Part shown: positions 32,180-35,339 of the stretch, piece after piece
How the letters are laid out: every line of letters begins with the position of its first letter
Position numbering within the stretch: the stretch's first letter is position 1
From: a virus
Taxonomy: Duplodnaviria > Heunggongvirae > Uroviricota > Caudoviricetes
IMG/VR virus record: IMGVR_UViG_2529292830_000018
DNA length: 42,618 nt
Direction: 5' to 3' (one strand)
The notes under the pieces: model-generated
Databases searched by the model: none
Told to the model about the DNA's origin: nothing
The model's input: only the letters and a program-made list of their open reading frames with translations
Translations under genes and position numbers: made by a program

Positions 32180-32256
32180 GTTGATAGATCCAGTAATGAC
32201 CTCAGAACTCCATCTGGATTTGTTCAGAACGCTCGGTTGCCGCCGGGCGTTTTTTA
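32180..32256 (+). ncRNA. oop: OOP antisense RNA
   Basis: GTTGATAGATCCAGTAATGACCTCAGAACTCCATCTGGATTTGTTCAGAACGCTCGGTTGCCGCCGGGCGTTTTTTATT matches recalled lambda OOP RNA including its terminator hairpin; antisense to the cII 3' end. Confidence 0.8.
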
Positions 32257-32498
32257 TTGGTGAGTCCATCAAGCGCATACTTAAAAGCCCTGCTAATCGG
32301 ACTGATGTCTGATGCCATTCCGAAAGCACACAAGACCGAAGCAATAAACCGCCAGTCCGTTCTGCTTATCTTCGATTCATGACAGCCAATCATCTTTGCC
32401 AGACCGCGCTGGGTAAGCGTTGACAGGTTGATGAGTAAATCAGTTTCTGCGCGATCAACGTCACGCTGTGATAGTTTGCTGTAACTTGTTCGTTCCAT
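32202..32498 (-). CDS. cII: CII-like transcriptional activator (chimeric: non-lambda N-terminus, lambda-identical C-terminus)
   Basis: 98 aa; C-terminal LTNKKRPAATERSEQIQMEF equals lambda CII, N-terminal ~75 aa differ but keep an HTH-like segment. Confidence 0.75.
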   Translation of the reverse strand: MERTSYSKLSQRDVDRAETDLLINLSTLTQRGLAKMIGCHESKISRTDWRFIASVLCAFGMASDISPISRAFKYALDGLTNKKRPAATERSEQIQMEF

Positions 32499-32583
32499 TT
32501 CTTAAGATTTCCAATAGTGAATAGTTAGTTGAAAGGTATGCGTGGAAACGCATATGGCCTTAGTTGGTCAGATATCTTGGGAC

Positions 32584-32598
32584 TCGCTTTGTCAGCGA
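32584..32598 (-). promoter_or_regulatory. nutR boxB hairpin (P22 type)
   Basis: Minus strand TCGCTGACAAAGCGA: 5-bp stem, GACAA loop plus A; same core as the nutL hairpin. Confidence 0.55.
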
Positions 32599-32636
32599 CG
32601 TAGGACGAATGTCCATTGTGAAAATAGCGGTGTTAC

Positions 32637-32837
32637 TTATGCAGTTGTTTTTTTGTTACTTGGGAAGGGCTTTACCTCTTCCGCATAAACGCTTCCATCA
32701 GCGTTTATAGTTAAAAAAATATTTCGGCCTGCATGAATGGCCTTGTTGATCGCGCTTTGATATACACCGAGATCTTTAGCTGTCTTGGTTTGCCCAAAGC
32801 GCATTGCATAATCTTTCAGGGTTATGCGTTGTTCCAT
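32637..32837 (-). CDS. cro: Cro repressor (lambda)
   Basis: 66 aa; [38 protein letters not shown] matches lambda Cro. Confidence 0.95.
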
Positions 32838-32861
32838 ACAACCTCCTTAGTACATGCAACC

Positions 32862-32927
32862 ATTATCACCGCTAGAGGTAAAATAGTCAACACGCACGGT
32901 GTTAGATATTTATCCCTTGCGGTGATA
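32862..32927. promoter_or_regulatory. oR operators (OR1-OR3) with pR and pRM
   Basis: TATCACCGCTAGAGGTA (32864-32880), CAACACGCACGGTGTTA (32889-32905), TATCCCTTGCGGTGATA (32911-27); pR -35 TTGACT and -10 GATAAT on the minus strand. Confidence 0.9.
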
Positions 32928-32937
32928 GATTTAACGT

Positions 32938-33651
32938 ATGAGCGCAAAAAAGAAACCATTAACACAAGAGCAGCTTGAGGACGCACGTCGCCTTAAAGCT
33001 ATTTATGAAAAAAAGAAAAATGAACTTGGCTTATCCCAGGAATCTGTCGCAGACAAGATGGGGATGGGACAGTCAGGCGTTGGTGCTTTATTTAATGGCA
33101 TCAATGCATTAAATGCTTATAACGCCGCATTGCTTGCAAAAATTCTCAACGTTAGCGTTGAAGAATTTAGCCCTTCAATCGCCAGAGAAATCTACGAGAT
33201 GTATGAAGCGGTTAGTATGCAGCCGTCACTTAGAAGTGAGTATGAGTACCCTGTTTTTTCTCATGTTCAGGCCGGGATGTTCTCGCCTGAGCTTAGAACC
33301 TTTACCAAAGGTGATGCGGAGAGATGGGTAAGCACAACCAAAAAAGCCAGTGATTCTGCATTCTGGCTTGAGGTTGAAGGTAATTCCATGACCGCGCCAA
33401 CAGGATCCAAACCTAGTTTTCCTGACGGGATGTTAATTCTGGTTGACCCTGAGCAGGCTGTTGAGCCAGGGGATTTCTGCATAGCCAGACTTGGGGGTGA
33501 TGAGTTTACCTTCAAGAAACTGATCAGGGATAGCGGTCAGGTGTTTTTACAACCACTAAACCCACAGTACCCAATGATCCCATGCAATGAGAGTTGTTCC
33601 GTTGTGGGGAAAGTTATCGCCAGCCAGTGGCCTGAAGAGACGTTTGGATAA
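32938..33651 (+). CDS. cI: CI repressor (lambda immunity)
   Basis: 237 aa; near-identical to recalled lambda cI across both the DNA-binding and LexA-like C-terminal domains. Confidence 0.95.
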
Positions 33652-33658
33652 CACGTAA

Positions 33659-34096
33659 ATGATTAAAGAACGTATTTCTTATATCATTCCGATTGCGATG
33701 GATGAAGGCAACCCAGTAACTCCAGTTCTTATCTATGAAATGGATAAAGACTCCCATGAAGTGGATCTATCATTTGGCGCTTTTTTTATCGGCCTTAAGG
33801 CTACAAAAAAATATTCCATAGGCATTGAGGTTTTCAATGCTCAAGAAATACCGATACCAATTGACACAAAACTGTACTCCAACCATAAGTTTTTTACGGT
33901 AGCAGAAGCCAACGATGGAGAAACCATCGTATCAACTTCTATGAGAATTAACTTCCCAAGGGTGAAAATTATCAAGCCTGGGATATTCGAAGTTAGAGCA
34001 TCACTGGTTAATCCTGATAAAGGCGAAGTAATTGATGTAAAAAGTTCGTTTTTTGACGTGAAGATAACAGGATCAGTTCGCGATGAGTTTAGATAA
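33659..34096 (+). CDS. Hypothetical protein occupying the rexA position (no similarity to RexA seen)
   Basis: 145-aa AT-rich ORF starting 8 bp after the cI stop; no TM segment; predicted soluble. Confidence 0.5.
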   Translation: MIKERISYIIPIAMDEGNPVTPVLIYEMDKDSHEVDLSFGAFFIGLKATKKYSIGIEVFNAQEIPIPIDTKLYSNHKFFTVAEANDGETIVSTSMRINFPRVKIIKPGIFEVRASLVNPDKGEVIDVKSSFFDVKITGSVRDEFR

Positions 34097-34454
34097 CAAG
34101 GTTGCTCAGCTTCGTCCAAATCAAAACATATCTCGCCCAATTGGACACTATTCCACTGATGATGCATACTCACGGCATGGTGGAGGAAACGGCGGAGGTA
34201 ACATGCTTGAGGCTAGAGTTGCAAAGCTAGAGTCTGATGTTGAATACATCAAGCGCGATCTCGCTGAAGTAAAGTCAGATATAAAATCTGTAGATTCTCG
34301 TCTGTCAGGTATTGAGACAAGCATTAGCTCAGCAAAAATCACCATCAAGGCATCTGCGGTCGTTGTCAGTTTCGTGTTCGCATTTTGCGCCTACATTTTT
34401 GGAAGTTATGTTTCCAAAATCCTTGATGCCTTAAACGGACTCGTTCTTAAGTAA
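34083..34454 (+). CDS. Hypothetical coiled-coil protein with C-terminal transmembrane helix, occupying the rexB position
   Basis: 123-aa ORF overlapping the upstream ORF by 14 nt; alternative start at 34203 (GGAGGT-aac-ATG, 83 aa). Gly-rich stretch, amphipathic coiled coil, hydrophobic helix AVVVSFVFAFCAYIFGSYV. Confidence 0.45.
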   Translation: MSLDNKVAQLRPNQNISRPIGHYSTDDAYSRHGGGNGGGNMLEARVAKLESDVEYIKRDLAEVKSDIKSVDSRLSGIETSISSAKITIKASAVVVSFVFAFCAYIFGSYVSKILDALNGLVLK

Positions 34455-34461
34455 CACACAA

Positions 34462-34487
34462 CCCGGCCTCAGCGCCGGGTTTTCTTT
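34462..34487 (+). terminator. Rho-independent terminator ending the cI operon (tImm-like)
   Basis: Stem CCCGGC/GCCGGG followed by TTTTCTTT. Confidence 0.65.
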
Positions 34488-34643
34488 GCCTCACGATCCC
34501 CTTCACCCAATAACACATAACCAATTGTATTTATTTGAAAATTAATAGATACAACTCACTAAACATCGCAATTCAGATCTCTCGATCACCTCCCAAGCCA
34601 CACACCCCTGCAAAAAAATAAATCTATATAAAAAACATACAGA

Positions 34644-34713
34644 TAACCATCTGCGGTGATAAATTATCTCTGGCGGTGTTGACATAAATACCACTGGCGG
34701 TGATACTAAACAC
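34644..34713 (+). promoter_or_regulatory. oL operators and pL promoter (lambda type)
   Basis: TAACCATCTGCGGTGATA, TATCTCTGGCGGTGTT, TACCACTGGCGGTGATA; -35 TTGACA (34679-34684), -10 GATACT (34701-34706). Confidence 0.9.
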
Positions 34714-34775
34714 ATCAGCAGGACGCACTACTCACCAGGGCGGTGAATATACAACGATTCGAATATGAATCTACG

Positions 34776-34790
34776 GCGCTGACAAAGCGC
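34776..34790 (+). promoter_or_regulatory. nutL boxB hairpin (P22 type)
   Basis: GCGCTGACAAAGCGC, matching recalled P22 boxB. Confidence 0.6.
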
Positions 34791-34955
34791 AATAACCAAA
34801 GTGAACTTTGGGGTGTGGTGAAGGGTTCATGGACGGGAATATGTCGCACGTAAAGCGGCGAGGCCTGCGGGACTATTGCCGAATTGAAGTAGGCCGAAAC
34901 AGGTCGAAATGGGTCTCCCACCTACCACACCACCAAAGTTCATCAGGAGGTCTAT

Positions 34956-35339
34956 ATGACACGCAGAACTCAGTTCAAAGGCAATTCACGTTCTCGTCGT
35001 CGTGAGCGTTTAAAGGCAAAGGCATTAGCTAACGGCGTACTGGCCCGCGAAGAAGCAATAAGTTCAGAAGTATTACACCGCCCTACTCTAAGCAGAGCGC
35101 AGATTCAGGCTAAAGGTACTCACAAAACGCCTGAGCGCATAGAAGACGCTAAGCCAATTAAGTTCATGGCACAGGACGTGATCTGGCAACAGAAAGAATA
35201 CAGACGCAATCTGGAGAGAGCGGCCATTGTGTACGCGAATGAGTTTGGACATAAGCAACCAGAAACTGGTGTATGTCTTCCAAATGTAGCTCTTTACGCA
35301 GCAGGATACCGGAAATCAAAACAACTGACGGCGAGGTAA
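34956..35339 (+). CDS. N-type antiterminator (P22 gp24-like)
   Basis: 127 aa; Arg-rich motif GNSRSRRRERLKAKA; C-terminus LPNVALYAAGYRKSKQLTAR resembles recalled P22 gp24; RBS AGGAGG. Confidence 0.75.
   Translation: MTRRTQFKGNSRSRRRERLKAKALANGVLAREEAISSEVLHRPTLSRAQIQAKGTHKTPERIEDAKPIKFMAQDVIWQQKEYRRNLERAAIVYANEFGHKQPETGVCLPNVALYAAGYRKSKQLTAR

Follow-up and report, generated by a model that had tools for sequence, protein, structure and literature searches.

Positions 32202–35339 of the 42,618-nucleotide (nt) Caudoviricetes sequence IMGVR_UViG_2529292830_000018 (the window, whose numbering is used throughout) carry cII, cro, cI and N together with their operators, promoters and nut sites, and we put at about nine in ten the probability that they form the early control region of a naturally occurring lambdoid mosaic of the HK97/mEp234 type. 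In this mosaic, a lambda immunity cassette, spanning oL/pL, cI, oR and cro, would lie between a nutL-leader-N flank of the H-19B/HK97/933W type on the pL side and the matching nutR-tR1-cII flank on the pR side, with the last 63 nt of cII, oop and O-P-ren being lambda type. This mosaic of lambda immunity and N is already known from the sequences and annotations of HK97, mEp234 and HK106. An earlier note on this DNA had described the region as a natural hybrid of lambda immunity and P22 antitermination with a chimeric cII; much of what it read from the letters was accurate, but the choice of P22 as partner did not hold, and the combination is not new.

Megablast returned matches in one or two pieces, at 97 to 98% identity, to HK97, mEp234 and HK106, which covered all but the cassette at the rex position. 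The HK97 match is unbroken over 32162–33651 (cII, nutR, cro, oR and cI) and resumes from 34464 to 35337, and the N/nutL and nutR/cII flanks are 97 to 99% identical to HK97, mEp234, HK106, H-19B and Shiga toxin (Stx) phages. The GenBank records compared were those of HK97 (AF069529), mEp234 and HK106 (EF120460 and EF120461; Degnan et al. 2007, Mol Microbiol 64:232), H-19B (AF034975; Neely and Friedman 1998, 2000, and papers of the Sen laboratory) and lambda (J02459); annotations were also taken from EF120459. Common to the window and to HK97, mEp234 and HK106 are CI, Cro, the operators, pL, a G-to-A change in oR1, N (98%), the boxB and spacer hairpins, the cII body, the terminator Timm and the segment adjoining oL. 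Record EF120460 annotates oL1–3, oR1–3, pL, pR, pRM, pRE, Timm, boxA and boxB of both nutL and nutR, N and cII in the same arrangement, and the annotation in the GenBank records of HK97 and mEp234 dates from 2000 and 2007.

The arrangement is also common, at about 2% of complete E. coli genomes, since the junction of lambda oL/pL with nutL was found in 111 of 5,426 such genomes (201-nt probe, at least 80% coverage) and that of lambda cro with nutR in 118 (221-nt probe). P22, by comparison, gave no blastn match within 32100–35400 when positions 28000–36000 were searched. The partner modules are thus of the HK97/H-19B/933W type, and the combination is one that HK97, mEp234, HK106 and 111 to 118 E. 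coli genomes share.

Module boundaries and the immunity cassette

Nucleotide alignment placed the switch points at 32265/32264, 32623 and 34729. From 29771 to 32264 (ninB, ren, P, O, oop and the cII tail) the window follows lambda 41084–38591 with 18 mismatches in 2494 nt (99.3%), and 31925–32264, covering the cII tail and OOP, equals lambda 38591–38930 exactly. Positions 32265–32622 (cII body, pRE, tR1 and nutR) are of the HK97/mEp234/H-19B type at about 98% identity. Similarity to lambda resumes at 32623, within the nutR boxA just past the cro stop codon, and extends through cro, oR and cI to 33651 (97.7% to lambda, 98% to mEp234). Beyond the rex-position cassette (33652–34458), which matches neither lambda nor HK97, the segment 34459–34729 with Timm, oL and pL is 89% identical to lambda and 97.5% to HK97 and mEp234. 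The first 16 nt from the pL start at 34714, ATCAGCAGGACGCACT, are common to lambda; after 34729 the sequence is of the HK97/H-19B/mEp234 type to the end of N. This last segment (34730–35339; nutL, N leader and N) is also that of Stx phages, in many of which the nutL-N module is 98.7% identical, with matches beginning at 34713–34715, the start of the transcript.

Because these joins sit at short conserved lambdoid sequences (ATCAGCAGGACGC at the pL start, the cro stop codon with boxA, and the cII tail with oop), homologous exchange would have been possible at each of them. Junctions inside cII and just downstream of pL had been predicted, and their positions (32264/32265 and about 34729) were confirmed, but they are not specific to this prophage. 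The accompanying statement that OOP, O, P, nin, Q and the lysis genes are exactly those of lambda was correct for OOP in the 31925–32264 segment and close for OOP/O/P/ren as a whole, but not for the rest: the NinG-to-Rz block (nin, Q and lysis) is 95.4% identical to lambda, and 28644–29770 has no lambda match save for a 167-nt stretch. Positions 29077–30223, which include ninB and an adenine methyltransferase gene, match HK97. In sum, lambda and the window share the immunity region, OOP/O/P/ren (99.3%), Q and the lysis genes (95%) and the last 20 residues of CII; they differ in N, which belongs to another Pfam family in lambda (N36), in boxB (GCCCUGAAxAAGGGC in lambda), in the cII body, in rexAB, which the window lacks, in part of nin, and in the genes for head, tail and recombination.

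The lambda character of cI, cro, oR and oL/pL, as the earlier note had it, was confirmed. CI (32938–33651, plus strand, 237 residues; Pfam HTH_3 and Peptidase_S24) differs from lambda CI at 2 residues (235/237 identical), and Cro (32637–32837, minus strand, 66 residues; PF09048) differs from lambda Cro at 1 in the identity table (65/66); both are 100% identical to the HK97 and mEp234 proteins. The right operators, oR1-oR2-oR3, with pRM and with pR as located by promoter scan, occupy 32864–32927. On the left, oL3-oL2-oL1 lie at 34645–34705 and the pL hexamers at 34679–34707, within a plus-strand segment (34645–34729, from promoter scan and alignments) that ends with the leader start given above. 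Five of the six operators (oL1–3 and oR2–3) are exactly those of lambda. The sixth, oR1 (32864–32880), reads TACCTCTAGCGGTGATA, with a single G-to-A change from laboratory lambda. That this might be a meaningful operator mutation was rejected, as the same base is found in HK97, mEp234 and phage CL707 and in every wild phage of lambda immunity in the comparison, and it is therefore the common wild allele, laboratory lambda being the outlier. Timm, at the end of the cI operon (34460–34481, plus strand), was identified by terminator scan, aligns with lambda and mEp234, and has an annotated counterpart at the homologous position in EF120460. By CI/Cro identity, the six operators, pL, pR and pRM, the prophage would belong to the lambda immunity group (imm-lambda), and from this sequence identity the CI/Cro switch should control pL, pR and pRM as it does in lambda.

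N and the nut sites

The N gene (34956–35339, plus strand) encodes a protein of 127 residues that matches PF25694 with 58.6 bits (cut-off, 27.9), the family to which H-19B N (57.9 bits) and P22 gp24 (152 bits) also belong; lambda N and CL707 N match PF11438 instead. It is identical to HK97 N at 125 of 127 residues and to H-19B N at 124 of 127, and its first 55 residues, including the arginine-rich motif 12-RSRRRER-18, are those of H-19B N. A search of PDB sequences with N returned no match. The earlier likening of N to P22 gp24 stands at the level of the Pfam family and of a similar arginine-rich motif, but the two proteins (127 and 100 residues) align only locally, with 21 of 30 C-terminal residues identical (LPxVALYAAGxRKSKQxTAR) and the middle unalignable, and there is no similarity between their DNA. 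In H-19B N, the 12-RSRRRER-18 motif has been mapped by experiment, mutations in it abolish antitermination at H-19B nutR/tR1, and N-dependent read-through of terminators has been demonstrated for the H-19B N/nutR pair (PMC3526286).

Both boxB hairpins with a GACAA loop were borne out in position and in fold. The boxB of nutL is at 34776–34790 on the plus strand (GCGCTGACAAAGCGC, also written GCGCUGACAAAGCGC) and that of nutR at 32584–32598 on the minus strand (TCGCTGACAAAGCGA, also written UCGCUGACAAAGCGA), the strands expected for the pL and pR transcripts. Each folds as an isolated hairpin (z = -3.2 for nutL; z = -3.8 and -5.6 kcal/mol for nutR), and a pattern scan of all 42.6 kb for GACAA hairpins with a perfect 5-bp stem returned these two and no others, against 0.08 expected from shuffled sequences. 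The nutL boxB is exactly that of P22 nutL, with its GACAA pentaloop, but the P22 nutR boxB (CCGCCGACAACGCGG) differs in its stem bases and has only the loop in common with the window; the P22 boxA (GCTCTTTA) also stands about 10 nt from boxB without a spacer hairpin. It is H-19B that the window resembles here, the whole of nutL and the nutR boxB being identical and the nutR/tR1 interval differing by 2 nt.

Between boxA and boxB lie spacer hairpins, GGAC-AUUC-GUCC in nutR (32603–32614, minus strand; -5.0 kcal/mol, z = -3.2), which is identical in H-19B, HK97 and mEp234, and GAUUC-N6-GAAUC in nutL (34756–34771; z = -2.6). We take these to be the "reducer" dyads of H-19B-type NUT RNA, and the reducer hairpin is said, in work by Neely and Friedman (2000), to shorten the long distance between boxA and boxB. 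That neither boxB has a clear boxA beside it, as had been reported, is true of nutL but not of nutR. The nutR boxA, CGCTATTTT (32621–32629, minus strand), stands 22 nt upstream of boxB, is the allele of H-19B, fits the consensus CGCTCTTTA at 7 of 9 positions, and is one base off the CGCTCTTTT of HK97 and mEp234 that EF120460 annotates as boxA. At nutL (34724–34790, plus strand), the sequence beside the transcript start, CGCACTACT (34724–34732), resembles boxA weakly: it fits the consensus at 5 of 9 positions, and EF120460, which annotates both boxA and boxB of nutL, calls it "putative".

Downstream of nutL, the N leader (34796–34948, plus strand) folds into a strong long-range stem, closed immediately upstream of the ribosome-binding site of N; the minimum free energy of 34714–34970 is -86.1 kcal/mol (z = -4.1). 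The leader has flanking blocks, CCAAAG...CTTTGGGG and CCAAAG, which are conserved in lambda, P22, H-19B, HK97 and CL707 (alignment A2), as is the ATCAGCAGGACGC of the pL start; they are short linker homologies of the sort at which modules recombine. The stem interior (34806–34938) has relatives of its own: it is different in H-19B, but 90% identical to phi80 and 97% to CL707, whose N and boxB are of the lambda type. The leader interior is thus a further sub-mosaic, independent of N type. H-19B, an Stx1 phage, differs from the window in other ways as well: although the N protein, nutL, the nutR boxA, nearly all of nutR/tR1 and the type of cII body are shared, H-19B has its own non-lambda repressor, cro and operators and a cII tail like that of HK97.

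Taken together, these features suggest how the region would work. N would be translated from the pL transcript, behind the leader with its long-range stem, and would bind the GACAA-loop boxB on both the pL and pR transcripts through 12-RSRRRER-18. With NusA and NusG, it would convert RNA polymerase to a termination-resistant form able to pass the Rho-dependent tR1 and terminators downstream, as the near-identity to the H-19B N/nutR pair implies. The combination with a lambda cassette is viable and frequent because the two systems are independent, operators working at the DNA level upstream of +1 and nut sites at the RNA level downstream of it; for the same reason, any immunity cassette should be combinable with any matched set of N and nut sites.

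cII, pRE and OOP

The cII gene (32202–32498, minus strand) encodes 98 residues and matches PF05269 with 119 bits (cut-off, 21.3). In a five-way alignment (A1), residues 1–77 are a body of the HK97/mEp234/H-19B type, residue 78 is glycine, and residues 79–98 are the lambda CII tail; the nucleotide switch falls between 32265 and 32264. In its DNA the body bears no relation to lambda, and the last 20 residues are identical to lambda, so the non-lambda N-terminal part and lambda-identical C terminus of the earlier description were both correct. Where HK97, mEp234 and H-19B have the tail EITKKKSPAATEDFKQIDMQF, the window has, after Gly78, the lambda tail LTNKKRPAATERSEQIQMEF. Inside the 5' end of cII, a pattern scan for TTGC-N6-TTG(C/T) located the CII-binding repeats of pRE, TTGCTGTAACTTGT (32476–32489, plus strand), where EF120460 likewise has its "CII binding site at pRE". 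The oop segment (32144–32256, plus strand), delineated by promoter and terminator scans, comprises the oop promoter (32144–32172) and the antisense OOP RNA with its terminator hairpin (32226–32253), all identical to lambda.

The same join of body, glycine and lambda tail recurs in ev017, HK629 and phi80, the last being the DH5alpha prophage, and one Stx phage is a single residue off at the join. In phi80, ev017 and HK629, an HK97-type body is followed by a lambda-type tail (...DGLTNKKRPAATERSEQIQMEF) that is identical in phi80 and ev017 and one residue off in HK629. We considered whether the cII junction had been created in this prophage and rejected this, since all three phages have the same join, including the unique glycine codon. 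Rather than the chimera for which it had been taken, cII is thus a standard allele of known lambdoid phages, an outcome that the earlier note had itself named as refuting its reading of cII; the mosaic boundary that does lie within it, relative to lambda and HK97, is old and shared. These phages carry other repressors, and phi80 and HK629 have other replication genes, with ev017 having lambda-like O/P/ren. Because phi80 and HK629 join this tail to non-lambda replication genes, and H-19B has a lambda-type O with an HK97-type tail, the 3' end of cII with oop reassorts independently of both neighbors. HK97 itself differs from the window in just this part, with an HK97-type tail and P22-like gp18/DnaB-type genes where the window has a lambda-type cII tail/oop and lambda-type replication genes. 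Two further differences separate the window from HK97 and mEp234: the nutR boxA allele described above and the rex position, occupied by hicAB in mEp234, by gp48/49 in HK97 and by other genes in the window, whose virion genes are moreover P22-like.

In lambda, the C-terminal tail of CII is a flexible degradation signal for FtsH, and the overlapping DNA encodes OOP. No loss of CII function would be expected in the window, since cII keeps its own DNA-binding and tetramerization body and its own pRE, and the lambda-type tail is the target of OOP. A second sequence that fits TTGC-N6-TTGC as at pRE, TTGCGAGCACTTGC, lies at 26754–26767 on the plus strand, antisense within the lambda-like Q. This site presumably corresponds to the CII-dependent lambda promoter paQ, and with such a site in Q the lambda-type Q module would be an expected target of the HK97-type CII.

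The prophage as a whole and the origin of its early region

The window is a complete prophage located at argW (tRNA-Arg) and extending from IntS through TorI. Its virion genes, within 1–24700, are P22-like and include the P22-family capsid, portal, gp4, gp10, gp16 and gp17 ejection proteins and tailspike, with no similarity of these structural genes to lambda or HK97. The early left arm carries erf and an anti-RecBCD gene (erf/abc). Overall, the genome is a P22-like prophage in which several early and late modules resemble those of lambda and HK97, and not a lambda backbone with P22 inserts, because the virion genes, immI and erf/abc are P22-like and the lambda-like modules are a minority. The immI-type region, P22-like and located at about 6.3 to 8.7 kb, encodes Arc/Mnt-like repressors, a P22-type antirepressor and the sar antisense RNA; the immC of the prophage is lambda type. 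The sar RNA (6529–6595, plus strand; RF00262, 76.6 bits) was the only match in an Rfam search of the whole window at gathering thresholds, which returned no nut or OOP match. TorI is the excisionase of the prophage, and a gene for an O-antigen acetyltransferase adjoins intS.

Read along the plus strand, the regulatory genes follow the order O (minus), cII (minus), cro (minus), cI (plus), two open reading frames (ORFs) of no assigned function (plus), and N (plus). Beyond the 3' end of N are two more ORFs to which no function is assigned, 35342–35704 (plus strand; phrog_7374) and 35735–36238 (minus strand; phrog_1244). By size and position they resemble a pair of ORFs that follows N in HK629, for which the annotation records similarity to HK620 p17 and p16. 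The minus-strand ORF is convergent and has Cys-rich CxxC motifs, and the gene next to it bears the annotation of a putative nucleotide-modification protein of the Nmad5 family.

The two ORFs between cI and Timm (33659–34454, plus strand) make up the only element in 32202–35339 without a known function. They overlap, encode 145 residues (33659–34096; phrog_5893) and 123 residues (34083–34454; phrog_6136), and occupy the position of rexAB in lambda and of hicAB in mEp234. Neither ORF has a match in lambda, HK97 or Pfam, and PADLOC gave no credible defense-system match for them or for neighboring ORFs. The AlphaFold model of the 145-residue protein (predicted local distance difference test score, 86) is all beta, with eight strands; Foldseek comparison of this model with the PDB found generic immunoglobulin-like and carbohydrate-binding beta-sandwiches alone, with TM scores of about 0.5 that assign no function. 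A search of PDB sequences gave no match for this protein and coiled-coil noise alone for the 123-residue protein. Homologues of the 145-residue protein form 20 clusters, whose named sources are all Enterobacterales (E. coli, Salmonella, Edwardsiella and Dryocola). The 123-residue protein has a coiled coil, a C-terminal hydrophobic (membrane) helix and a weak XhlA-like match. Salmonella phage epsilon34 has a homologous pair (gp45/gp44) downstream of another repressor. By its position in the repressor operon, the cassette is a tentative candidate for a lysogen-expressed two-component superinfection-exclusion or abortive-infection system that has so far gone uncharacterized.

Given a P22-like virion and immI region, an N in the same Pfam family as gp24, and a nutL boxB that is P22's own, the early region could be imagined as a direct and recent recombinant in which gene 24 and the nut sites of P22 were put into a lambda backbone. 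This is very improbable and is refuted at the nucleotide level: P22 has no blastn match in 32100–35400, the protein alignment is confined to the 30 C-terminal residues, and the nutR boxB, boxA position and leader of P22 are all different, whereas HK97, H-19B and Stx phages match at 97 to 99%. Hybrid-immunity derivatives of lambda do exist in laboratories, but nothing specific speaks for an engineered construct of that kind, or for an assembly chimera. Such an origin is scarcely conceivable when the window is 100% identical to a segment of the closed chromosome of the clinical isolate E. coli NCCP 13717 and the same junctions recur in 111 to 118 independent complete genomes and in phages from both Hong Kong and Mexico.

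A decaying, functionally mismatched remnant, in which N/nut or cII no longer works with its lambda-type neighbors (e.g., at pI or paQ), could be argued from the off-consensus nutR boxA, the lack of a good boxA in nutL, and a non-lambda cII body beside a lambda-like Q. We regard this as improbable, though somewhat less so than a P22 recombinant, since all ORFs are intact; N, both boxB sequences and the spacer hairpins make up a matched set, the same as in functional H-19B; the pRE site and the antisense TTGC-N6-TTGC site in Q (26754) are present; and HK97, mEp234 and HK106, which form plaques, carry the same combination. A few points do weigh against a functional HK97/mEp234-type early region. 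The functions of N, the nut sites and cII in this prophage are inferred from near-identical characterized relatives; N has three substitutions relative to H-19B N (K56, E59 and K79), all of them outside the arginine-rich motif; and with its 5/9 consensus match, the nutL CGCACTACT may not be a boxA at all. Neely and Friedman (2000) reportedly found H-19B N to depend on NusA and to do without NusB, S10 and boxA, and an N with no need for boxA would explain the degenerate boxA sequences here.

As a discovery, the HK97/mEp234-type arrangement of this region amounts to little: it is textbook modular evolution of lambdoid phages, in which an immunity cassette is swapped between matched N/nut flanks at short conserved linkers. 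Its value is as a worked example. N and two physically separate nut sites pass on together as one matched set, enclosing an immunity cassette that can be exchanged; the cII tail and oop form a mini-module that is combined independently of the cII body and of the replication genes; and lambda immunity coexists with an immI antirepressor region in a prophage of the P22-like podovirus kind.

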